From: Elusimicrobiota bacterium
GTDB lineage: Bacteria > Elusimicrobiota > Elusimicrobia > JACQJN01
DNA length: 10,628 nucleotides
Assembly (NCBI GenBank): GCA_016205045.1
Contig: JACQJM010000147.1
Span: 1 to 10,628 of the forward strand
Direction of reading: 5' to 3'
Below, piece by piece: positions 685 to 10,541 of this stretch. A program made the translations under genes and the position numbers. Every line of letters starts with the position of its first letter. Position 1 is the stretch's first letter. A model generated the notes under the pieces. The model searched no databases and was not told the DNA's origin. It saw only the letters and a program-made list of their open reading frames with translations.

Positions 685-3591
685 TCAGGGTGTTATGAGT
701 TTTATGACCTTGACGATTATCTCGGTACAGATTCCCCCGATACCAGTGAAAAAGCTGATCAGTCCGATTTGAGCTGTAAAATATTGGAGGATGTATCCCT
801 TCCCACCAAGTATAGATCGGCCACTAATTATGAAGCCTGCAATGAAAAGTAATACTGAAACCCACCAATGTGTTACAAGGGCCACTCCGACTCCGAGAGG
901 AATGCCTGTAAGAAGAGGGATGAGGAAGAAAGGAGGGATGAGGTCGAAAAGTTCTACGCTGCCGCGCTCGGGATTTTTGTAAATTCCCGAGCGGGCCATG
1001 GAGGCGTCTCGAATGTATTCCGTAAGGTCGAAAGGTAATACACCTCCGAAGGCCCAGCGTACGGTCGATTCTGTGTCCGGTCGCGGCTGAAGCGCATAGG
1101 TTTCAGTTGTAGGGGAATAGCGGTAGACGTTGCCTTGGGCGTCCACGTTTAAATATCTCCGGGTGGTTGTGTGTTTATAGGAATAAATGACCGTCCCATT
1201 GGTTTCTGTCTGGCCCATGAGCATAAACCAATGCCTGAGACCCCTGGGAACAAGTAGTTCTAAGGGGTACCATTGGGGGTCACTGCCCAGATTCTGTTCT
1301 CCAAATCTTCCCAGTTTTCTCTTCAAAGCATCGAGTTCTGGATTGGGACGAAAAGGACCCATAAGTCCTAGTGAGATGGGCAGTAGGCTTCCTGCTCCAG
1401 CGTGGTGAGGGGCCAGAAGGGAGAAAAAGGAAGTAATTGCCTTTTGGATATGGGGCCACAAGAATATTGCTAAGGCGATTATTCCGAGGATGGCTAAAAC
1501 CTCGATGAGCCAATAGACAACCGTCCCACGCTCAGCGTTCTTGTAGATTCCCAGATGGGTAAGGATTTGTCGGATCTTTTTGAAGGGCCAAGATAGAATC
1601 TCACCCACCACGCCAAGTCCTGCGATTGCCATAATAGCCAGCAGGCCGAACAAAGAAGGACTCCCCACTCCGGCTTGGGAGATAGGTCGGGAAGTAAGGA
1701 GAGCCTGGAATTGGGAGATGGGGTCTGATTCGACAGGGTACGAAAAGGCGTAAAGAATGGTCACAAGCGCTCTGAGTAGTAATGTGAAGAGTACCGTGTA
1801 GATGCTGAGCTTTATGATTCTGCCGGCTTTCTCCTGAATTCTCTTGGACCTTCCTTTAACCCTTACTGCTCCAGAGGCTACGCCCACAACTAAAAACACC
1901 GCAAACAAACTGGGCAGGTATATAGGGCTTGTTCCCAGAATACCCCCAATAGCAAGGGCCGTGAAGTTCCAAGGATTCTTTAGGAAATTAAAAGTGATCG
2001 CGAAGATGTTGGGTTTAGGGACATAGGCCTCCATGTCTATCATGACAATGGTGTCTTCCGTGGGCAGGGGAATTTCGGAGACTTCTACCAGGGTGCGCTT
2101 TGGAAAAGGGGCTTGAAAATATTCTCTATAGACTTTCTCGAGCCCCGCCTTATTCGCGGCCATATCTTTTATGGTTATGGTTACGTCGGCCACATCTTTA
2201 AGACTGCCTCCCGCCGCTTTTAAAACAGCCTTGAGATTTTCTAAAGCTTGTCGGGTTTGTGGTTCAATGCCTCCCGGCACGACTTCATCTGTTTCTGGGA
2301 TATTTCCTGTTTGTCCCGATAAAGTGACCCGAATATTTTTTTGGAGATCGACGGCCACAGCTTGGCTATAGCTTCCTGGAGGTGGAGCCTTCTTTGTTTG
2401 GATGGTTGTGTGTCTTGTGGATACTGGAGTTATTTTATTCTTGCGGCGTTTAAAATCATTGAGTAATTGAAAAAATCTAGTACTGGAAATATTTTGAAAG
2501 GTGAACCGGCCGTCCGGACTGATAATATAGGGCGATTTTTCAGCGCTCTCCACTGCAGAATTGGCAAAGCGAGATAGGGCAGCTCCCGCTTTTTCTGCCC
2601 AACGCCGGATGCTGGATTTTGTCAAATCTGGAAATTGTCGTTGTAAGGCCAAGAGTTCAGTCCTGGTACGCTCTTCTGCCGCCTCCTCGTTGGGCTCTAA
2701 TTTCCTAAATCCATATTGAATGCCTGGAAATGGAGTGACGGTGGGACTAGGAAGTGCGTGTTTGTCTGCGTATGTTGCCAAAATATTTTTTAGATGCCTG
2801 ATCTTTTTTTGGGCTTCCTCGCGTGAAATGATGGTTGGTACGATGACAGTTGTTTCTATTCTTGTAGGAGGTGGCTGAATTTCTGCGGAGAAGGGGGTAC
2901 GCCTAACGGGGCCGGAAATAGGTTCCCCGCGAAGGCCAAAATCGTCAAAGCGTGGGGCGGCATTCACGATGAGAGCTTTTTTAAGTTCCGCAACTTTTTT
3001 TTGGGCTTGCGCGCTTATTTGATGAACTCCGGGGCCGTATAGATCAAGGCTTCTGGTCTGATCTTGAAAAGCCTCCCAATCGGCCAGACTGTGATGATTT
3101 GTGATCATTCCATTCAGTTTCCCACGGACAAACTCTTCTATATGGGGAACCAGGATTTGATAGGTTTGTAAAAACTCTCTTCCTAATTCTTCTTGTTTTT
3201 CAATGGGAAGTTCATTGATGCGCTCGAGATCAGGAAGATGTTTTCGATTCAGGGCGAAGGCGAGGGGTCCGAGAGCTTCTAAGTCATTAGGATTGTTAAA
3301 CCTAAAAGTCTGAAGGTTAGCTAAGTTAGGCGCCTGTACTAGAATATGGGAGATGACGGGGTTGCTGATATCGAGCAGAAAAGTCTTTAGGCTTGCCAGG
3401 GCATTGAGAGTGGTTGCCGGGGCCGGTGCAAATAGAGGAATGCGCTGCCCAAAGGGTATTCCAGAGTTGCCCGAACTTGAGGCCGCCGCCAGGGCACGAG
3501 TGACCTCAGGCCCCAGGGTGGTGATGAGGAGGGATGTTATTAAGAGAGCAGAAATTTCCTGCTTCAATCGCAATAAACCGATTTTTTTCAT
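685..3591 (-). CDS. 968-aa exported multi-pass membrane protein with an internal RidA/YjgF (enamine/imine deaminase) domain. It is a paralog, in its N-terminal part, of the upstream 1391-aa protein. The family is unknown.
   Basis: Long ORF with a GAGGA ribosome-binding site 8 nt upstream of the ATG. The N-terminal signal peptide is MKKIGLLRLKQEISALLITSLLITTLGPEVTRALAAA, with an AxA-type cleavage site. Residues ~402-525 align along their whole length with RidA/TdcF. The conserved pieces are GSYSQAV, LSGQ and QTRQALENLKAVLKAAG, followed by a PKRT motif carrying the arginine and then LVEVSEIPL. From ~aa 528 to the C-terminus there are about 8-10 hydrophobic helices. A ~130-aa soluble loop sits between them. 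The motif GIYKN[AP]ERG[TS]V occurs twice. Confidence 0.85.
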   Translation of the reverse strand: MKKIGLLRLKQEISALLITSLLITTLGPEVTRALAAASSSGNSGIPFGQRIPLFAPAPATTLNALASLKTFLLDISNPVISHILVQAPNLANLQTFRFNNPNDLEALGPLAFALNRKHLPDLERINELPIEKQEELGREFLQTYQILVPHIEEFVRGKLNGMITNHHSLADWEAFQDQTRSLDLYGPGVHQISAQAQKKVAELKKALIVNAAPRFDDFGLRGEPISGPVRRTPFSAEIQPPPTRIETTVIVPTIISREEAQKKIRHLKNILATYADKHALPSPTVTPFPGIQYGFRKLEPNEEAAEERTRTELLALQRQFPDLTKSSIRRWAEKAGAALSRFANSAVESAEKSPYIISPDGRFTFQNISSTRFFQLLNDFKRRKNKITPVSTRHTTIQTKKAPPPGSYSQAVAVDLQKNIRVTLSGQTGNIPETDEVVPGGIEPQTRQALENLKAVLKAAGGSLKDVADVTITIKDMAANKAGLEKVYREYFQAPFPKRTLVEVSEIPLPTEDTIVMIDMEAYVPKPNIFAITFNFLKNPWNFTALAIGGILGTSPIYLPSLFAVFLVVGVASGAVRVKGRSKRIQEKAGRIIKLSIYTVLFTLLLRALVTILYAFSYPVESDPISQFQALLTSRPISQAGVGSPSLFGLLAIMAIAGLGVVGEILSWPFKKIRQILTHLGIYKNAERGTVVYWLIEVLAILGIIALAIFLWPHIQKAITSFFSLLAPHHAGAGSLLPISLGLMGPFRPNPELDALKRKLGRFGEQNLGSDPQWYPLELLVPRGLRHWFMLMGQTETNGTVIYSYKHTTTRRYLNVDAQGNVYRYSPTTETYALQPRPDTESTVRWAFGGVLPFDLTEYIRDASMARSGIYKNPERGSVELFDLIPPFFLIPLLTGIPLGVGVALVTHWWVSVLLFIAGFIISGRSILGGKGYILQYFTAQIGLISFFTGIGGICTEIIVKVIKLITP
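2017..2388 (-). other. RidA/YjgF/L-PSP family domain embedded within the 968-aa CDS
   Basis: The translated segment APPPGSYSQAVAVDLQKNIRVTLSGQTGNIPETDEVVPGGIEPQTRQALENLKAVLKAAGGSLKDVADVTITIKDMAANKAGLEKVYREYFQAPFPKRTLVEVSEIPLPTEDTIVMIDMEAYV matches E. coli RidA/TdcF motif by motif: the Tyr of GPY, SGQ, Q-R-SLDNVKAIVEAAG, and PARS-VEV with its Arg. Confidence 0.8.
3484..3526. repeat. Nucleotide-level repeat shared by the 5' coding ends of the two giant genes. The partner copy is at 7719-7761. Identity is about 79% over 43 nt, with a 16-nt exact core ggccccagggtggtga.
   Basis: Aligned by eye. On the minus strand the repeat encodes the conserved TTLGPE[VF]TRALAA signal-peptide block in both genes. 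Confidence 0.7.
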
Positions 3592-3644
3592 AGATTAAGT
3601 TCCTCTGTAGAAACCCATTGGATATTGCAGTTTTGATCCAATCT

Positions 3645-6600
3645 TTACTTAATGCCAGTTTTATCTTGAAGTTTTTTGACTTGTTCCTTCAAGGTTTTTA
3701 TTTCTTCTTGCGTATTAGAATCATCTATAACAAGAAAGAATGTTGCCACGGGCCCAAGTAAGAGAGACACCAAAAACCAGTTGAAACCCGAACGCCCCTT
3801 ACCTTGTGCGATACCTGCATTGATTAATGACAGAGTCCCCCAGCCTACTGTGAAGCCATTTAGGGAGGTGCCATTCTCAGCTAAAGCTAAATGAGGAAAG
3901 AGTGATATTCCTAGAGCAGATAAGAGGAGTGTGAGCAGTAGAAGTACTCCCATTTTTACTGAACCTCTTTCAGATCGGGCTTTGGCTATTTGGGTTTCCA
4001 AATCTGAATCGATCTTTGCATCGACCCAGTTAGATTCCTGGTTTCTGCGGGAGGCTACTTCTTTCTCCACAGCCTGCAGGGTACTCAACACGGGAGCGAA
4101 CCCAGTTCGGGCGCTGGACCCATTATTGAATAGATTGGAAAATAACCCAAACAAAGGAGGGAGAAGCAAGTCCATGAACATTCCGTTTCCAGCATCAACG
4201 GAACTGCCAGCATGCCCGGGCAGAGCCGCGCCTAGATTTTCGGCTTTGATGGTTTCATCGTTCTGTAGAGCGGTGATCATAGGGCGCAAAGATTGTAGTC
4301 CCGCATTAGCGGCAGAAGCCTCAGATTGTGCTGCAGAAGCTTCTGAGGCCGCTAAGGCTCTGTACATTCCGCTGTGATCCTCATAAGTGATGGAGGTATT
4401 ACCTTTAGAGTCTGTGTGGGTTACCGGAACATTGGTGTTCATGGCGGCCATGGCCAAGTAGGATGTTTCGCTGTTTCGATGAGAAATCATGCTGTCGATA
4501 TGATGGTCGATTTCACGTGCCAAATCAGCAGCGGGCTTAAGTTTCTCATTAAATAACGTGCTGAGCCGGTCTAGATGGTCGCGGTGTGTCTTGAACTCCC
4601 CACTTTGTGCATATATTTTGTCGCTGACCCGTTTGCGCATGGCGCTGTTGAACCTATCATATAGGGCTTCTTCTGTAACGATGTCTGTCTTTTCAAATCC
4701 TTCTAGTTCTGCCTGAGTTTTCTTGGATTGCTGACCCATCTTTCCTTTAAAGAGAGGAGGAATTTTCTTGACAAAGTTTGCGATGTTCTCTGCGATTGTG
4801 TTGGCGGTATTATTTTCCTGATCAATTTCGGCCGCAAAGGATTTGAGCAGTAAGGCCAGAGAGCCTTCGAAACCTGTGCTTACAGCAGGGGCTTCTTTCT
4901 GAGTCAGTTCAGATTCCCAGATTTTAGAGAGTTTCCCCCCGATGCGCGAACCACTGTCTTCAGAAACGGTATTTTCATTGAGGTCTGCTCGTGCGGCCAC
5001 TAGAAGATCAAAAGCAGCATAGGTTTCTGCTAGTTTAACAGGGTCCTTGGTGGCATTGTCCACTCGCTTTGCTTTAGATGCTTTGGCTTGATCTAGGGCT
5101 ACGGTCATTCTTTTGTGACGGGCTCTGGCTTGTTCGCCAATCCGATCCAGAGCGGAAGCATTATTAGCTTGTTGGGCCTCTTCGATGCGCACCATATCTG
5201 CCGCGCTTTTGGATTTTTTCCAGACTTGGTTTTTTCTGGAGGAGTAGTAATAAAATCCAGCCAGAGTGATTCCTCCCGCAAGTACTACCGCGGCGGTGAT
5301 CAGAGCCCAAAGAGGGAACTGGCTCAAGAAGCCGGTCTGAAAGAGACTATTAGCAGGTTCGGACCAGCCATCTAAGGCATCTGCCACGGCGGTTTTGAAA
5401 TGGAATAATGTTCCTAGGGAGGATAAGAGGAGTGTGAGCGTCAACAACCCTTTCACTTTCCCCGATTTTCCTCCGGGTTTGGTTTCTGGTTTTTGTTTAT
5501 TCTTTCTGTCCAGGTAGGAGTGGTGAGATTGATGCACAAAAGCAAGTCCTAATAGGATGGCGGCTAGGAAGGCCAGTCCGATGATGATTCCCGCGCCCTG
5601 GATTGAGAAGCTGGAAGCTGCGGCTTGAGTCAGTAATTCCGAGGCATGGGCCGGGGTGGGGTTGAGAATAACCCGAACAAGGACGGCAATCGTGAATGTG
5701 GAGAGGGCGTAATTCCTCGTATCTTTTAGAATTTCATCGGCGTCTTTTATGAAGTTTTGGGAATTCCACGAGGGCAGAACAGGTAAGATCACCAGGAGAG
5801 AGGAGACGGCGAGAGTCAATCCAGTTGCCAACAAAAAAATCCCAACGGAGGAAAGAGGAAGCATTCCAAGAAGCGCACCAACGACGAGACTGCTTACACC
5901 CAGGTGTGTTTTGTAGAAACTGCCGACCGAATTCAAAACGGACTGGACCGGCGGATGATATTTTCTGTATTCCTGAGCTGTTTTTATTCCTCTCTCCAAC
6001 AGGTCGATACCATATTTTTTAAAGGTCTTTAAGGCTTCCTGGTCTTTAACCGTGGTTAGAAATTGAATTGCCAAAGGATTATCTTCCAGGGCTACAACCA
6101 ATACCGAAGAAATTCTTTTTAATCCTGTTTTGGTTCCATTCCAATCGACAAGTTCCTCATCTACTCTTTGTCTTAGTTGTTCCAGGCTTTGGGGGTCTCC
6201 AATTTCCAAGAGAGCTTTTACAGCATCGAGTGTGTAGTATAGGATCATCTCATGCTTCTCTTGATCTATGAGATTCAGGATGGGTTGAGCGAGTTTGGGA
6301 TTTTTGAGTTTTGCCGCTTGTTTGATAGCGCGTTGTTTTTGTTTTACAGAGGATTTTTCATCGGTAAGCGTGGCAATTAATCTATCAAAAGATTTAGCAT
6401 CCCAGTTTGCGAAAATGAAAAGAGCGGTCATGCCTGCAGCGATCATGCCTGCCACGAGTGCTAGGCTTTCTAAGGAACTCGTAGCGGGAACCAAGATTCC
6501 ATTGTCTTGGGCGGCCGAGCGGGACGGAAAGATCAATTGTGTGATACCTTGAACCAAGCCCATCGTAAGAAATAAAGAGAACCAACCCCGAAATATGTTC

Positions 6601-7820
6601 CCTGGTTTGGGGCGGGGTCTAGTCTCGGATGCCGTTTTTGAGTCAGGTTCTGGAGTAGGAGGACTTGTCGCTTGGCTCGTTTTAGGATGGGCATTGCTGC
6701 GGACAAAAGTCTTTCTGGCCCAGTCGCGCACCCTTGAGGTCCAGCTAGGAGGTTTCAAGCCTGGATATCGGGTTTCCAGTTCTGCTTTTTCCGACTCTAA
6801 TTCCTGGATGCGTTGCAGAGAGCGTTTACCGCTGACCCGGGATGGGCCTATCCTATCTAAATATAAGGAAACTCGAGTGTCGCGAATCCGTGCCGCTTCA
6901 GCCATTTTCAAGTAGGAGAGACTTTCCGTGACTTCTCTGTATTTTTGAACGGCATCCAGGGGAATCGTTTGAGGGGATGACAGATTTTTTACCGGCTCTG
7001 CAGTGCGAAGATTATCTAGAGTTTGGCGACGAATACTCCTTTGTAAAGGGTCAACGATCCCACCCAACCCGGGGTTAATGCGTCCACCCTCATTGACCAT
7101 GTCCATAGACCCTGTTGAACCGTCATCTGACCCTGTGTGCCCTGGGGCGATGGCTTGGGTGGTGCGTTCCATGGAAGCGGTTGTGGCTTCGCTCCTCATT
7201 CTGGAAACTGTTATTTTCACCGATTGGGCCAAGTCAGAAATAATAGAGCCTTTAGGGGAGAGATCCTTGGGGTGGGCAAAGTACATCAAAAGACCGCTGA
7301 GTTGGGAATCTAACTGAGTCAAATCAGTTAGGGCGTGTTCCCGGGCTTTGTACTCTTGGTCACGGGCAGAGATAGCTTCTTCCATGTCAGGGGCAGCAGC
7401 TTTGGCGGCATCTTCCAGTGTTTCTAATATTTTTCCCTGTTTATGAGAGTCGAACGTGGCGATGCGATCTAATTCTTGGCGGAATTTTCTAGGAAGATGA
7501 GAAATTAAAGGAGCTATGACAATGCGTCCTTCCTGGTAGTAATTTAATCGGGCTAGAGGAGCAATGAAGGGATACCGGACTTGTAGTTCTTTGCCAGCGG
7601 GTGAGTTTAAGAATGGCACGAGGTGCTCCGCAAAACTCTGGCCCCATCCCTTGGAAGCGGGATCAAACAGAGGTCTTCCGATGGACAGGGGAGCGGCTCC
7701 CCCTGGATTGGCGGTAACCGCTGCCAGGGCCCGGGTAAATTCCGGCCCCAGGGTGGTGACTAAAAGAGCTACTGACAGAATAATGGAGAGTGATTTTTTG
7801 GTTAGTTTGGAATAGTTCAT
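3645..7820 (-). CDS. 1391-aa exported giant membrane protein. It has a signal peptide, a coiled-coil-rich soluble N-domain of about 400 aa, several clusters of transmembrane helices, a HEAT-like helical repeat region and long charged coiled-coil segments. It is a paralog of the 968-aa protein. The family is unknown.
   Basis: Uninterrupted 4.2-kb ORF. An AGGAGA ribosome-binding site lies upstream of the ATG at 7820, and the gap from the HTH gene's stop codon is 20 nt. The N-terminus MNYSKLTKKSLSIILSVALLVTTLGPEFTRALAAV, followed by PLSIGRPLFDPA, matches the 968-aa protein's LLITTLGPEVTRALAAA and IPFGQRIPLFAPA. Both proteins have a KP(G)NIF motif at the transition into the TM domain. A TM module is duplicated internally (LLLLTLLLSALGISLF versus LLTLTLLLSSLGTLFHF). 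Confidence 0.85.
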   Translation of the reverse strand: MNYSKLTKKSLSIILSVALLVTTLGPEFTRALAAVTANPGGAAPLSIGRPLFDPASKGWGQSFAEHLVPFLNSPAGKELQVRYPFIAPLARLNYYQEGRIVIAPLISHLPRKFRQELDRIATFDSHKQGKILETLEDAAKAAAPDMEEAISARDQEYKAREHALTDLTQLDSQLSGLLMYFAHPKDLSPKGSIISDLAQSVKITVSRMRSEATTASMERTTQAIAPGHTGSDDGSTGSMDMVNEGGRINPGLGGIVDPLQRSIRRQTLDNLRTAEPVKNLSSPQTIPLDAVQKYREVTESLSYLKMAEAARIRDTRVSLYLDRIGPSRVSGKRSLQRIQELESEKAELETRYPGLKPPSWTSRVRDWARKTFVRSNAHPKTSQATSPPTPEPDSKTASETRPRPKPGNIFRGWFSLFLTMGLVQGITQLIFPSRSAAQDNGILVPATSSLESLALVAGMIAAGMTALFIFANWDAKSFDRLIATLTDEKSSVKQKQRAIKQAAKLKNPKLAQPILNLIDQEKHEMILYYTLDAVKALLEIGDPQSLEQLRQRVDEELVDWNGTKTGLKRISSVLVVALEDNPLAIQFLTTVKDQEALKTFKKYGIDLLERGIKTAQEYRKYHPPVQSVLNSVGSFYKTHLGVSSLVVGALLGMLPLSSVGIFLLATGLTLAVSSLLVILPVLPSWNSQNFIKDADEILKDTRNYALSTFTIAVLVRVILNPTPAHASELLTQAAASSFSIQGAGIIIGLAFLAAILLGLAFVHQSHHSYLDRKNKQKPETKPGGKSGKVKGLLTLTLLLSSLGTLFHFKTAVADALDGWSEPANSLFQTGFLSQFPLWALITAAVVLAGGITLAGFYYYSSRKNQVWKKSKSAADMVRIEEAQQANNASALDRIGEQARARHKRMTVALDQAKASKAKRVDNATKDPVKLAETYAAFDLLVAARADLNENTVSEDSGSRIGGKLSKIWESELTQKEAPAVSTGFEGSLALLLKSFAAEIDQENNTANTIAENIANFVKKIPPLFKGKMGQQSKKTQAELEGFEKTDIVTEEALYDRFNSAMRKRVSDKIYAQSGEFKTHRDHLDRLSTLFNEKLKPAADLAREIDHHIDSMISHRNSETSYLAMAAMNTNVPVTHTDSKGNTSITYEDHSGMYRALAASEASAAQSEASAANAGLQSLRPMITALQNDETIKAENLGAALPGHAGSSVDAGNGMFMDLLLPPLFGLFSNLFNNGSSARTGFAPVLSTLQAVEKEVASRRNQESNWVDAKIDSDLETQIAKARSERGSVKMGVLLLLTLLLSALGISLFPHLALAENGTSLNGFTVGWGTLSLINAGIAQGKGRSGFNWFLVSLLLGPVATFFLVIDDSNTQEEIKTLKEQVKKLQDKTGIK
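3908..3936. repeat. Intragenic direct repeat inside the 1391-aa gene. The partner copy is at 5411-5439. Identity is 26/29, with an 18-nt exact core gataagaggagtgtgagc.
   Basis: Read from the sequence. On the minus strand both copies encode a poly-Leu TM segment (LLTLLLSALG versus LTLLLSSLG). This indicates an internal module duplication. Confidence 0.7.
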
Positions 7821-7840
7821 GATTTTTTCTTTTCTCCTGG

Positions 7841-8023
7841 TTAATTAACTTCGGTCAGGTACTTCTCAATGGCCACTTGGGAAATTTGGTACTTTCGGCC
7901 GAAGCGCTTCGCCTGGAGTTTACCCGATTTGATGTACTCGTAAATGGTGGCGGGGCTAACCTTGAACTTCTTGGCGAGGTCTTCTACCGTGTAAAACGTC
8001 AAATTGCCTATCGCGATAGACAT
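7841..8023 (-). CDS. 60-aa helix-turn-helix DNA-binding protein of the excisionase family (HTH_17 / AlpA-Xis-like, MerR superfamily). It is the first gene of the minus-strand operon.
   Basis: The sequence MSIAIGNLTFYTVEDLAKKFKVSPATIYEYIKSGKLQAKRFGRKYQISQVAIEKYL fits the excisionase-family HTH pattern: xTveEaAxxLgvSxxTIYrlIrsGxLxAxKxGRxxrIxxxxLxxYL. An AGGAGA ribosome-binding site lies 6 nt upstream of the ATG. The giant gene starts 20 nt after its stop. Confidence 0.8.
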   Translation of the reverse strand: MSIAIGNLTFYTVEDLAKKFKVSPATIYEYIKSGKLQAKRFGRKYQISQVAIEKYLTEVN

Positions 8024-8061
8024 GGATGATCTCCTGCTTAACTTAATTCAGTTAGGTTATG

Positions 8062-8067
8062 AGTATA
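8062..8067 (-). promoter_or_regulatory. Candidate -10 element TATACT for the minus-strand HTH operon, about 40 nt upstream of the HTH ATG
   Basis: Hexamer read from the sequence on the minus strand. No strong -35 element was found. Confidence 0.3.
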
Positions 8068-8145
8068 TTAAAACCGCTCAGCACAGGCATGAGTCCTTTA
8101 GGGTCGTCAGAAGTTGGTAAAAGACCTACGAAATCCTTAGGAAAA

Positions 8146-8168
8146 AGGACCTGGATATCCTGGGTCCT
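8146..8168. promoter_or_regulatory. Near-palindromic operator-like site AGGACC-TGGATATCC-TG-GGTCCT
   Basis: Inverted AGGACC/GGTCCT arms flank a central GGATATCC palindrome. The site lies in the divergent intergenic region. Confidence 0.45.
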
Positions 8169-8216
8169 TGGGGTTCTAAAATTTCGTGGGACTTGCATGG
8201 GACCTAGATCATACAT

Positions 8217-8263
8217 AGGACCTTAGGGTGTGGGGCCCAAATTTGGGATAGGCCCAAGGTCCT
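8217..8263. promoter_or_regulatory. Composite nested palindrome. An outer inverted repeat AGGACCTT...AAGGTCCT encloses a perfect 12-bp palindrome CCCAAATTTGGG (8236-8247). GGCCCAA direct repeats are also present.
   Basis: Read directly from the sequence. The outer arms at 8217-8224 and 8256-8263 are exact reverse complements. The inner palindrome is almost concentric with them. Further GGGAC(C/T)T copies lie at 8188-8205. Confidence 0.5.
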
Positions 8264-8265
8264 AC

Positions 8266-8295
8266 ATATCCACATAGGGGATAACCTGTGGATAA
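8266..8295. promoter_or_regulatory. DnaA-box cluster. It has ATATCCACA (8266-8274, 8/9 match to TTATCCACA), GGGGATAAC (a partial GGATAA half), and a perfect box TGTGGATAA (8287-8295, the reverse complement of TTATCCACA). An AT-rich tract follows.
   Basis: Direct match to the established DnaA-box consensus TTATNCACA. The boxes are in head-to-head arrangement. Flanking AT-rich sequence ctttaaaacatggcttttaatgtaaataatgcaaaaaatt follows. Confidence 0.5.
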
Positions 8296-8349
8296 CTCTT
8301 TAAAACATGGCTTTTAATGTAAATAATGCAAAAAATTAGGGAGATTCTG

Positions 8350-8378
8350 TTGCCTTGAATACCGAATTATGCTAGGAT
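8350..8378 (+). promoter_or_regulatory. Candidate sigma70-type promoter for the SPFH/M28 operon. It has -35 TTGCCT (8350-8355), a 17-nt spacer, and -10 TAGGAT (8373-8378).
   Basis: Hexamers and spacing read from the sequence. The position is about 30 nt upstream of the GGAGG ribosome-binding site and the ATG at 8408. Confidence 0.35.
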
Positions 8379-8407
8379 GACCCATCAAGTAGAAGTAGGA
8401 GGTCCTC

Positions 8408-9178
8408 ATGGCTGACATTTTTCACTTTTTCGGAGTTTCTTCTCCCTTCGTCCTCATTGTTCTTTTCATTGTGTTCAGTGCTATTAAGATCCTCAATGAG
8501 TATGAGCGTGGTGTCGTGTTCACTCTGGGGAGATTCACGGCGGTCAAAGGACCGGGACTGGTTTTGGTGATTCCCGGCATTCAACAGATGACCCGGGTAG
8601 GATTGAGGACGTTAGTTCTGGATGTGCCTCCTCAGGACATCATTACCCGGGACAATATATCCGTCAAGGTGAATGCGGTGGTGTATTACCGAGTGATCGA
8701 TCCAGAAAAGGCCATCATCCAGGTGGAGAACTACCACTACGCCACAAGCCAGCTTTCTCAGACCACGTTGAGGTCGGTTCTGGGACAACAGGAGTTAGAT
8801 GACCTTCTGGCCAACCGGGAGAAGATCAATGCCAGCCTTCAACAAATTTTGGACCAACACGCGGAGCCTTGGGGCATCAAGGTCTCCAACGTGGAGGTGA
8901 AAAATGTGGACCTGCCTCAAGAGATGTTGCGGGCGATTGCTCGGCAGGCTGAGGCGGAGAGGGAAAGAAGAGCCAAGATCATTCATGCGGAAGGAGAATT
9001 CCAGGCTTCTCAAAAGCTGGCGGACGCTGCTCAGATCATCACCAAATCCCCAGGAGCCATTCAACTGAGGTACCTCCAGACGATGACAGAAGTGGCCGGG
9101 GACAAGAGCGCCACCATCATATTTCCCTTCCCGATTGATCTGATCCAGTTGTTCTTAAACAGGAAAAATGACAACTAG
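8408..9178 (+). CDS. SPFH / Band-7 domain membrane protein (stomatin-like, QmcA/YbbK-type slipin)
   Basis: A GGAGG ribosome-binding site lies 5 nt upstream of the ATG. The N-terminus has a TM helix, [23 protein letters not shown]. It is followed by a typical SPFH core ([16 protein letters not shown]...[50 protein letters not shown]...). A C-terminal coiled coil follows ([30 protein letters not shown]). Confidence 0.93.
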
Positions 9179-10541
9179 AAAGAGTTCCCTAGTTTTAGGT
9201 TTAAGTGCTTTGTTTCTTATCTCCACTCGCTTGTCCTGGGCTCAAGTGGGAAGAGTTAAGGCTGATATCCCCGTCATTCCCAATCCTGTTATTGTTCCAG
9301 CCATCCAGACTCTTCCACCACTCAATTTTCCTCAGCCTCCTGTGACGGCGTTAAGTATTTCCGCATCGCGACCCATGTCTACAGTTCAGTCTATCCGGCC
9401 TCTGGCTCCTACCGCGAGGGTGAGGGTTCCAGCACGACCGTCGCCTGTGATGCAGTCGGTCGGTCATGAAATGGCGGCATTCCAGGGGATTCCTCCCTCT
9501 AATTTAGGAGACCGTTCGGGGTCCCTAAATCGCTTCTACTCCGGCTCGGGTTCCACGGGGCAGCCCCCTTCGGGGCCCGTGGGAGGTTCTTTTAAAGATT
9601 CTATTGAGTCTTTCGTGGAGAAAGCTAAGAGGCGTTTTTATCCCAAGCTCTCTCCTGGCCGAGAAGCTCCTGTTTTTATCCCCGACGCTCTTTTTCAAAC
9701 CGAGGGAGTGCCTACGGATGAGGAAATTCAAAAACGTGTGGAGCTTTCCCCTCTTAGCAACGAAGAAAGATTTAAGGCCATTCGACAAATTTATCTGGAT
9801 GCAGGCGCTAAGCCCGAACAGATGATCGCACAAAAAATAGGAAATCGCGAGGCCTATAACCTGATCGTGACCAAGCCTGGCAAGACGGATCGGGTGATCG
9901 TGATCGGAGGGCATTACGACAAAGTCCGCGCGGGCAAAGGCACCATCGACAACTGGACCGGGGCGACCATGGTGGCCAATGTATTTCAGGCCCTGAAAGA
10001 TGTGGAGTTGGAACACACCATCGTTTTTATGGCGTTTGGGTTGGAGGAAGAAGGAATGGTAGGGTCGAAATATTATGTTCGCAGCCTTCCGAAAGACCAG
10101 TTAGCCAAAATCGATAGAATGCTGAACCTAGACACCATGGCGGTGGACGGCACTTTCTCTTGGCCCAATGGCTCGGATCGGCCTCTCTTAGATCTGGCCA
10201 TAAAGGTAGCCCAAGAGGAAAAATTGGCTCTTAAAGAGCAGCCTCTCTCGGGAGGAGATAGTGATCAAACCAGCTTCCGCAGAGCAGGTGTTCCCGCCAT
10301 GATGCTCTATGGCGCTTCCCCTAGTGTCATCTGGGATATTATTCATACAGACAATGACAACATTGCTGCCTTTTCCTTGCCGCATTATAAAAACGCCTAT
10401 TTATTGTCTCGAGCGTTAATGCTGGCGATGGATAGATTGCCCAACCGCCCTGCATCCCTTGTCTTGGATGGGTTTTTGGAGGCTCCACTGAATCCCTGGT
10501 GGCTCCATTTCCTTACTTCTCCCAGACCTTCTCAACCTTAA
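9168..10541 (+). CDS. Secreted M28-family zinc metallo-aminopeptidase with a signal peptide and a ~160-aa proline-rich N-terminal linker
   Basis: An AGGAAA ribosome-binding site lies 4 nt upstream of the ATG. The ATG overlaps the SPFH stop by 11 nt (ATGACAACTAG). The signal peptide is [25 protein letters not shown]. The M28 motifs are GGHYDKV (His249), GTIDNWTG (Asp261), [13 protein letters not shown] (Glu293/294), NLDTM (Asp322) and IIHTDNDN (His393). All five zinc-ligand positions of the family are therefore present. Confidence 0.9.

Follow-up and report, generated by a model that had tools for sequence, protein, structure and literature searches.

Is the trio of minus-strand genes at positions 685 to 8,023 of a contig from an uncultured, groundwater-type Elusimicrobia bacterium a dedicated system of the bacterial envelope, and what kinds of protein are its two giant products? 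The stretch of DNA analysed (a complete contig of 10,628 nucleotides, hereafter the window) encodes there a small helix-turn-helix (HTH) protein and two large membrane proteins, designated A and B, and this single 10.6-kb contig represented the genome of the metagenome-assembled genome (MAG) concerned. The descriptive account reached here, according to which A and B are modular, lineage-restricted proteins of the cytoplasmic membrane accompanied by a small HTH_17 protein, is held with high confidence. The explanation as a whole is given somewhat less than even confidence, and the receptor or scaffold mechanism within it slightly less again. Novelty was found at the level of a protein family and its fold, not of a multi-gene system. 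An earlier note, made from the DNA letters, had proposed a candidate undescribed envelope system with two paralogous giants; that both are envelope proteins without a place in known families was upheld, while its coiled coil, the extent of its paralogy and its island-borne system were not. The three genes and the segment that defines the new family were located as follows:

7841-8023, minus strand: HTH gene (60 aa, NCBI MBI4056892.1), first gene of the co-directional trio
3645-7820, minus strand: gene of protein A (1391 aa), a cysteine-free mosaic protein, multi-pass according to its hydrophobic segments
685-3591, minus strand: gene of protein B (968 aa, NCBI MBI4056890.1, 'hypothetical protein HY399_05005')
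3969-5336, minus strand: transmembrane (TM) helix and helical module of ~430 aa (A residues 829-1284), the family-defining segment

The helical module of protein A and its family

An exhaustive HMMER search of A residues 1-1200 against 1.84 billion cluster representatives returned 71 matches, and every one of the 59 clusters with E<=1e-10 fell on A ~829-1200. Local phmmer comparisons (E 1e-124 to 1e-30) carried the match to residue 1284, where most homologs end, and the module aligned end to end at identities of up to 47%. A word-indexed search with full-length A had found no homolog, a limit of its sensitivity since exhaustive HMMER detected the family. Module homologs elsewhere were stand-alone proteins, mostly of 450-740 aa; the named members were each a 'hypothetical protein' and came from Elusimicrobiota MAGs, together with one cluster labelled Deltaproteobacteria. 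The module's own TM helix (A 833-858) aligned with that of the family. Conserved motifs comprised SKS just past the TM helix, RIGG, GFEG, P..FGG, MRxRVS, HRDxxDRL, ISHRxSE, YEDxSGxYR and LPPLFGLFS, and a 14-sequence alignment displayed invariant residues at S870, R959, G961, W968, G986, P1021, E1050, R1062, R1064, D1148, S1150 and E1194.

A common layout was observed among the ~45 members with a complete N-terminus, namely a signal-peptide-like start, an N-region, a TM segment and the C-terminal module. The signal-peptide-like start was present in 32 of the 41 members beginning with Met. The N-regions (60-260 aa) had no Pfam match and were hypervariable, two related pairs being found at E<1e-5, and the module was usually preceded by one TM helix, by three in a few members. 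HEAT was the only known domain found with the module: protein P0132 combines the module, two TM helices and bona fide HEAT repeats (1.3e-33), an echo of the HEAT-like insert of A which suggests that the association of module and HEAT recurs. We consider the module, with high confidence, to be the conserved core of an undescribed family built of signal peptide, hypervariable N-region, TM helix and module. Protein A belongs to this family, its N-terminal part being expanded by the N-domain, a linker, about six additional TM segments and the HEAT-like insert, and its C-terminus extended by a two-TM tail.

The earlier note had read this part of A as some 350 aa of charged coiled coil, in place of which a conserved module was found, confidently modelled as a helical bundle with a beta-hairpin. 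Neither in A nor in its homologs did it match any Pfam, NCBIfam, PHROGs or PADLOC family, and its profile retrieved no PDB sequence even at E<=10. The AlphaFold2 model (mean predicted local distance difference test score 85.1, predicted TM-score 0.72, both confident) consists of very long bundled helices of 32-66 residues, one beta-hairpin and a low-confidence loop that holds the conserved hydrophobic PPLFGLFS. Foldseek comparison of this model with the PDB gave no significant or global match (best E 0.044, TM-score <=0.17), and fold searches overall yielded non-significant or generic helical-bundle matches only. Toxins of the ClyA pore-forming type and colicin Ia were over-represented in the Foldseek list. 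The ClyA, Hbl, Nhe, MakA and AhlB toxins and colicin Ia resemble the module as elongated bundles of 35-66-residue helices with one beta-hairpin; however, the matches are non-significant (E at least 0.044), a sequence relation to PDB entries was not seen, and the module protein is permanently membrane-anchored and most likely faces the cytoplasm. In addition, the beta-tongue of the ClyA family is expected to be hydrophobic, whereas the module hairpin, VPVTHTDSKGNTSITYED, is hydrophilic. Membership of the ClyA family was rejected on the grounds of sequence, global fold and hairpin. The module and the N-domain described below are both undescribed families, and the module lacks a global fold match, which puts the two at a distance from every known kind.

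If the module is a real functional unit, a structurally distinct membrane-anchored domain would be added to the bacterial repertoire. Elusimicrobiota are a phylum with almost no experimental biology, and the confident AlphaFold model represents a concrete target for structural and cell biology. Pending function or topology, the significance is moderate, because metagenomes often contain orphan families of comparable size.

Outside the module, two further segments of A could be delimited:

5910-6401, minus strand: HEAT-like helical-repeat insert between TM segments (A residues 474-637)
3648-3968, minus strand: C-terminal tail of A (residues 1285-1391), with ERGSV, two TM helices according to hydropathy and a short charged end

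HEAT-like repeats had been proposed for A, and a corresponding stretch was detected at residues 480-556, but the PF13646 cut-off was not reached (20.6 against 27.7 bits). The insert matched HEAT_2 at 5.5e-4, the HEAT-repeat protein P0183 at 6.6e-7 and the HEAT region of P0132 at E 0.016; this support is indirect, and residues 474-637 may be called HEAT-like only. No Pfam or NCBIfam match over threshold was obtained anywhere in A. The earlier view that neither large protein can be placed as a transporter (RND, MMPL, ABC permease), secretion component or adhesin was thus confirmed, A matching no family and B only RidA. The last TM helix of A, GKGRSGFNWFLVSLLLGPVATFFLV (window 3648-3800, residues ~1324-1381), weakly resembles small phage membrane protein families, phrog_13090 (8.5e-5) and phrog_8436 (1.6e-4), the function of which is unknown.

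An alternative reading takes the giant open reading frames (ORFs) for frameshifted or misassembled fusions of unrelated smaller genes. A change in conservation within ORF A, which the earlier note would have taken as a sign of fusion, was indeed found, residues 1-828 being nearly orphan, unlike 829-1284; no jump in codon usage and no frameshift accompanied it. The exact 1391-aa product was also missing from the public protein collection, in which its four contig neighbours are present (MBI4056890, -892, -893 and -894); the deposited annotation of A probably differs in start codon or gene flagging. On the other side, ORF calls returned the three minus-strand ORFs of 60, 1391 and 968 aa uninterrupted, and ORFs of 1391 and 968 codons are impossible by chance in DNA of 48% GC, so that A and B are real genes. 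GC content at third codon positions (GC3) and relative synonymous codon usage (RSCU) were even along both ORFs and the off-frames were uncorrelated, which argues against frameshift artefacts. Moreover, P0124, P0125 and P0146 also have extra TM helices or long N-regions, P0132 has a C-terminal extension, and the TM helix of the module in A aligns with that of the family. A fusion artefact is accordingly extremely improbable, and the conservation jump within A is the mark of evolutionary domain accretion.

The N-terminal cassette shared by A and B

The segments of the two proteins on which their comparison is based were as follows:

7719-7820, minus strand: A residues 1-34, Sec-type signal peptide ending in conserved TTLGPEFTRALAA
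7266-7718, minus strand: A residues 35-185, shared N-domain, small, all-helical, ~150 aa
3037-3591, minus strand: B residues 1-185, signal peptide (1-36) and shared N-domain
2059-2406, minus strand: RidA/YjgF/L-PSP domain (B residues 396-511), N-terminal to the first TM helix
688-1962, minus strand: ~7 TM helices and a ~160-aa soluble insert at 720-878 (B residues 544-968), from hydropathy

A single significant alignment between A and B was obtained by BLASTP, covering A 8-180 and B 10-185 (29% identity, E 4e-13). Both the leader TTLGPE[FV]TRALAA and the PLF.PA motif reported earlier are present in the two proteins, whose N-terminal ~185 aa are truly homologous. In the signal peptide of A the n-region is positively charged and the h-region hydrophobic, and an ALA-A site is present. 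At the signal-peptide end 14 of 15 residues are identical between A and B and the DNA differs synonymously; the codons of TTLGPE[FV]TRALAA differ at five synonymous sites, so that the peptide was kept by selection and not by recent gene conversion. These Sec-type signal peptides, with the homology of residues 1-185, support the prediction of envelope proteins with a common exported N-terminus. The N-domain matched no family in Pfam, NCBIfam, PHROGs or PADLOC, its profile met nothing better than E>=0.39 among PDB sequences, and it was not found in other module proteins.

The relationship does not extend as far as had been proposed. Past residue 185 the similarity of the A and B linkers was at chance level (P 0.21), which leaves a common coiled-coil-rich soluble domain of ~400 aa without support beyond the first 185 residues. 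The KP(G)NIF motif, said to be shared, also dissolved: 4- and 5-mers common to both proteins outside the N-domain (ERGSV among them) were as numerous as expected from shuffling, and the best local alignment of the linker region bypasses KP(G)NIF. The idea of a paralogous pair with a common architecture therefore holds for residues 1-185, and perhaps for one TM unit, and fails for the rest, where the proteins are different mosaics.

The possible TM unit consists of ERGSV, a TM helix and FPHL, directly past the module of A, and aligns to B 667-718 (P ~0.002); this similarity is only suggestive, because a shuffling test is permissive where segments are hydrophobic. B itself carries a significant internal repeat, GIYKNAERGTV (residues 681-691, window 1519-1551) and GIYKNPERGSV (residues 869-879, window 955-987), with a TM helix after each copy. 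The copies share 9 of 11 residues, which none of 200 shuffles equalled, and their DNA differs synonymously. This arrangement raises the possibility that ERG[ST]V, ahead of a TM helix, is a juxtamembrane motif with a functional or processing role. We hold with high confidence that A and B descend from a duplication, of which the surviving part is the 5' cassette and possibly one ERGxV-TM unit.

A comparable situation was found at a second locus (L002), where a HisKA/HATPase_c kinase (918-2360) lies two genes upstream of the module protein P0127 (3623-5842). The first ~230 residues of these two proteins, hydrophobic leader included, are common to both (63% identity, E 4e-92). The locus parallels A and B and shows an exchange of N-terminal cassettes among adjacent genes at loci of this kind, without establishing a role in sensing. 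Neighbour genes with a common N-terminal cassette at two independent loci suggest an evolution of envelope proteins by cassette exchange.

The RidA domain recognized earlier in B was corroborated: PF01042 scored 78 bits (cut-off 27.3; 7.5e-22) over B 400-510, and 42 RidA relatives were found in the PDB, the best at 3.5e-22. In alignments with solved RidA proteins, GSYSQA and PKRTLVEV of B fall opposite GPYSQA and PARSCVEV, with Tyr and Arg retained. The score for TIGR00004, the archetypal RidA model, was 86.4 bits, below its cut-off of 106.25. To our knowledge, RidA proteins are small soluble trimers, cytoplasmic or organellar. The domain of B resembles them in its PF01042 score and Tyr/Arg signatures and differs in being embedded in 968 aa ahead of ~7 TM helices, on a predicted extracytoplasmic face. 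Around the first TM helix of B (548-575) one K+R residue precedes and five follow; this bias, and the position of the RidA domain past a signal-peptide-led region, predict a periplasmic location for it, which is unusual in this family. An exported, membrane-fused RidA-type domain with intact catalytic residues would extend Rid chemistry or ligand binding to the envelope.

Two window proteins gave PADLOC matches, both at the domain level only (RidA to PD-T4-2_B and HTH to mad1). B 395-518 matched the C-terminal part of PD-T4-2_B (E 1.8e-13), a region that is RidA-like. The hallmarks of PD-T4-2 are DUF262 and HEPN domains (PMC10952713), neither of which occurs in the window. Membership of B in this system was rejected, as the match is confined to RidA and the window has no DUF262, HEPN or methyltransferase partner.

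Membrane topology and a possible receptor or scaffold

How these parts might work together can be proposed as follows. A 5' cassette of Sec signal peptide and N-domain was duplicated, after which each protein gained different parts, A the HEAT-like insert and the TM helix with its 430-aa module, B the RidA-type domain and a multi-TM body unlike that of A. The signal peptides would export the N-domains, so that both proteins would display one and the same small domain at the external surface of the cytoplasmic membrane, where it may bind a common ligand or partner. Protein A would couple its N-domain via the TM bundle to a cytoplasmic helical module, a receptor- or scaffold-type output, and B would set a trimer-forming RidA-type domain able to bind small molecules (imine/enamine) in the periplasm beside its own membrane domain. 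The HTH protein, which would be co-transcribed with A and B, probably controls its own operon through an AGGWCCT array at 8146-8257.

The orientation of the module is central to this proposal. A cytoplasmic module is moderately favoured by the signal-peptide-like N-termini of the family, followed by an odd number of TM helices, and by the charge distribution, K+R being 3.09 past the TM helix and 2.09 before it (Wilcoxon P 0.008, module family). By analogy, the pattern of a variable outside and a conserved inside, typical of receptors, would also favour a module within the cell. A bolder reading makes the module a new class of cytoplasmic output or scaffold domain for transmembrane signalling, used in Elusimicrobiota and a few other uncultured lineages in parallel to histidine kinases. 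One N-terminal cassette would then be carried either by a kinase or by the module, as at L002, and in the window by A and by the RidA-bearing B, and these proteins would represent an undescribed mechanism of signal transduction or envelope sensing. This reading seems distinctly improbable at present.

Several observations weigh against the proposed receptor or scaffold. The module family contains 0.12% Cys; among 40 members, 33 had no Cys, one had a single Cys and six a Cys pair. Valyl-tRNA synthetase and a radical-SAM protein of a relative (L001), both cytoplasmic, contain 1.4-2.2% Cys, and from this difference an extracytoplasmic module would be the better fit. The six pairs (P0123, P0126, P0136, P0137, P0141 and P0145) lie in the hairpin segment (A ~1131-1147); five of them flank the hairpin as C-x6-9-C, four of these being followed by His, and that of P0141 is an adjacent CC. 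Such a pair might form a disulfide staple or bind a metal. At L002, the kinase lacks a TM helix between the shared cassette and its H-box, an anomaly in a sensor kinase whose N-terminus is signal-peptide-like, so that a cleaved signal peptide would export the kinase itself; either that cassette is cytoplasmic or the gene is aberrant. A first reading of the L002 cassette as a shared periplasmic sensor was undercut by this missing helix, and the N-domain of the window is unrelated to that cassette (hhalign probability 4%). Methyl-accepting chemotaxis proteins and sensor histidine kinases, with their swappable sensor domains, were listed among the closest known systems, from which A, B and the 63 module-family members examined differ in lacking HAMP, MCPsignal, HisKA and HATPase; PAS and GGDEF were likewise found in none of them. 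Finally, genome context was limited to the one contig, no partner gene was conserved in six neighbourhoods (see below), and co-transcription and HTH binding are themselves predictions from the DNA.

The Cys depletion and the L002 kinase are also grounds for an inverted arrangement, in which the N-region would be cytoplasmic and the module an extracytoplasmic helical stalk of ~7-8 nm, either a spacer or tether or a membrane-active device of the ClyA, Hbl or colicin type. The predominance of ClyA-family toxins and colicin Ia, long bundles with a beta-hairpin, in the Foldseek list and the conserved hydrophobic LPPLFGLFS in the low-confidence loop agree with such a stalk. The evidence from Cys is nevertheless weakened as a topology marker, because all five contig proteins are Cys-poor: they contain one Cys in 3,132 residues (one Cys codon in 3,137, with ~44 expected from positional base composition), A, the HTH protein, the slipin and the M28-type peptidase having none, and M28 homologs average 0.07%. 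Depletion seems specific to the envelope and exported proteins of the lineage and tracks the envelope without being decisive for topology. With the charge bias and the signal-peptide-like starts pointing the other way, the inverted arrangement is considered unlikely, and a cytoplasmic module remains moderately favoured.

Operon, regulator and genomic context

Whether HTH, A and B work together was addressed through the neighbourhoods of related genes. Six were fetched, five around module genes (on a 43.8-kb Joint Genome Institute contig, at L002, L003 and L004, the last from a 164-kb contig, and on a 63.6-kb contig) and one around the N-domain homolog P0186. None of the six contained an HTH_17 gene, a B-like gene or a common partner, contrary to the expectation of a conserved trio. 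The module genes stood alone in varied housekeeping contexts and therefore look self-contained. Neither A nor the N-domain alignment retrieved a relative from the genome and metagenome contig collections scanned.

The earlier note had inferred one accessory, island-borne envelope scaffold or sensor under an AlpA/Xis-type regulator. The tight co-directional spacing (gaps of 20 and 53 nt) and a ribosome-binding site for each gene, AGGAG or GAGGA before every start, were verified and speak for such a dedicated system, as do the common exported N-domain with its selectively maintained leader, the repeat array upstream of the HTH gene, and the GC3 and codon usage of A and B, somewhat unlike those of the slipin and M28 neighbours (RSCU r 0.38-0.47, with a reference of only ~700 codons). 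Against it stand the absence of the trio from the contig scans and the six neighbourhoods, a contig devoid of tRNA, integrase, recombinase and flanking repeats and flanked by housekeeping elements (slipin-M28 genes and a flavin mononucleotide (FMN) riboswitch), and the absence of relatives among the plasmids, phages and viral contigs searched. Although the families themselves are undescribed, the evidence does not support a 'system' of three genes, and a dedicated island-borne assembly is judged improbable.

At the opposite extreme, A and B may have no joint function, a tandem duplication having been followed by independent domain shuffling, with the adjacency of A and B and the presence of the HTH gene as historical accidents. 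Only 185 of ~1000-1400 residues are related, at 29% identity; the NCBI-listed window proteins (B, HTH, slipin and M28-type) are each singletons at 90% identity; and module genes stand alone elsewhere, the cassette duplication at L002 involving an unrelated kinase. However, purifying selection acts on the c-region of the signal peptide and on the N-domain, and the ERG[ST]V-TM unit is retained in both proteins. No terminator-like site was found on the coding strand in a scan between the trio genes, which, with gaps of 20 and 53 nt, implies co-expression. Independent histories without a common role thus appear rather unlikely, and shared use of the N-domain by A and B remains the preferred, still tentative, reading.

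The 60-aa protein, named 'helix-turn-helix domain-containing protein' by NCBI, is an HTH_17 regulator as previously stated, with a PF12728 match over residues 10-58 (5.9e-14, 52.5 bits, cut-off 27). It also scored above the cut-off of the TIGR01764 'excise' model (2e-10, 40.8 bits, cut-off 28.8), and models of BldC, MamR and MAD1 matched only far under their cut-offs. These two scores ally it with the excisionase/MerR-like group of Xis, AlpA, TorI and BldC. The short-repeat array upstream would suit the cooperative binding of excisionase-type proteins, from which the locus differs by the lack of an integrase, an att site and a prophage context on the contig, which is short enough that a distant integrase could lie beyond it. 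The array lies in the following region:

8114-8295, no strand assigned: candidate operator/promoter with an AGGWCCT palindrome array and an inverted pair of DnaA-box-like 9-mers; repeats D1, I1 and I11

The palindromes start at 8146, 8163, 8200, 8217 and 8257. The pairs 8146/8163 and 8200/8217 are each spaced by 17 bp and lie 54 bp apart, and the fifth copy begins 40 bp past 8217. In the intergenic region 8024-8407, where 0.52 copies of GGWCC were expected, six were counted (P ~2e-5), a density ~12-fold over the rest of the contig. The array is a candidate operator for the HTH_17 protein or for a divergent slipin promoter.

Between the slipin and HTH genes, two DnaA-box-like 9-mers converge at 8266-8274 (ATATCCACA, plus strand) and 8287-8295 (a perfect TTATCCACA, minus strand), forming an 8-nt perfect inverted repeat, TATCCACA/TGTGGATA. 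A replication origin at 8266-8295 was rejected, as the contig carries neither dnaA nor dnaN and its cumulative GC skew has no inflection at the boxes; a regulatory site is more likely than an origin.

The usual partner of an SPFH gene is an NfeD-type protease. Beyond the array, on the plus strand at 8408-10541, a slipin (SPFH/Band 7) gene and an M28-type peptidase gene (9168-10541) overlap by 11 nt, their products being named 'slipin family protein' and 'M20/M25/M40 family metallo-hydrolase' by NCBI. The nearest relative with this pair, L001 1-1879 (GCA_016205085.1), shows 57% identity and the same overlap, its contig being cut at the slipin gene; the two genes represent a conserved SPFH-peptidase pairing. 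At the other end of the window, directly downstream of B, a full-length FMN riboswitch (RF00050) was detected at 235-446 on the minus strand (84.9 bits, E 1.2e-18). A promoter-like site (478-450) lies ahead of the riboswitch and a terminator-like hairpin (189-170, minus strand) with a T-run behind it; the gene under its control must be a riboflavin-related one situated off the left edge of the contig.

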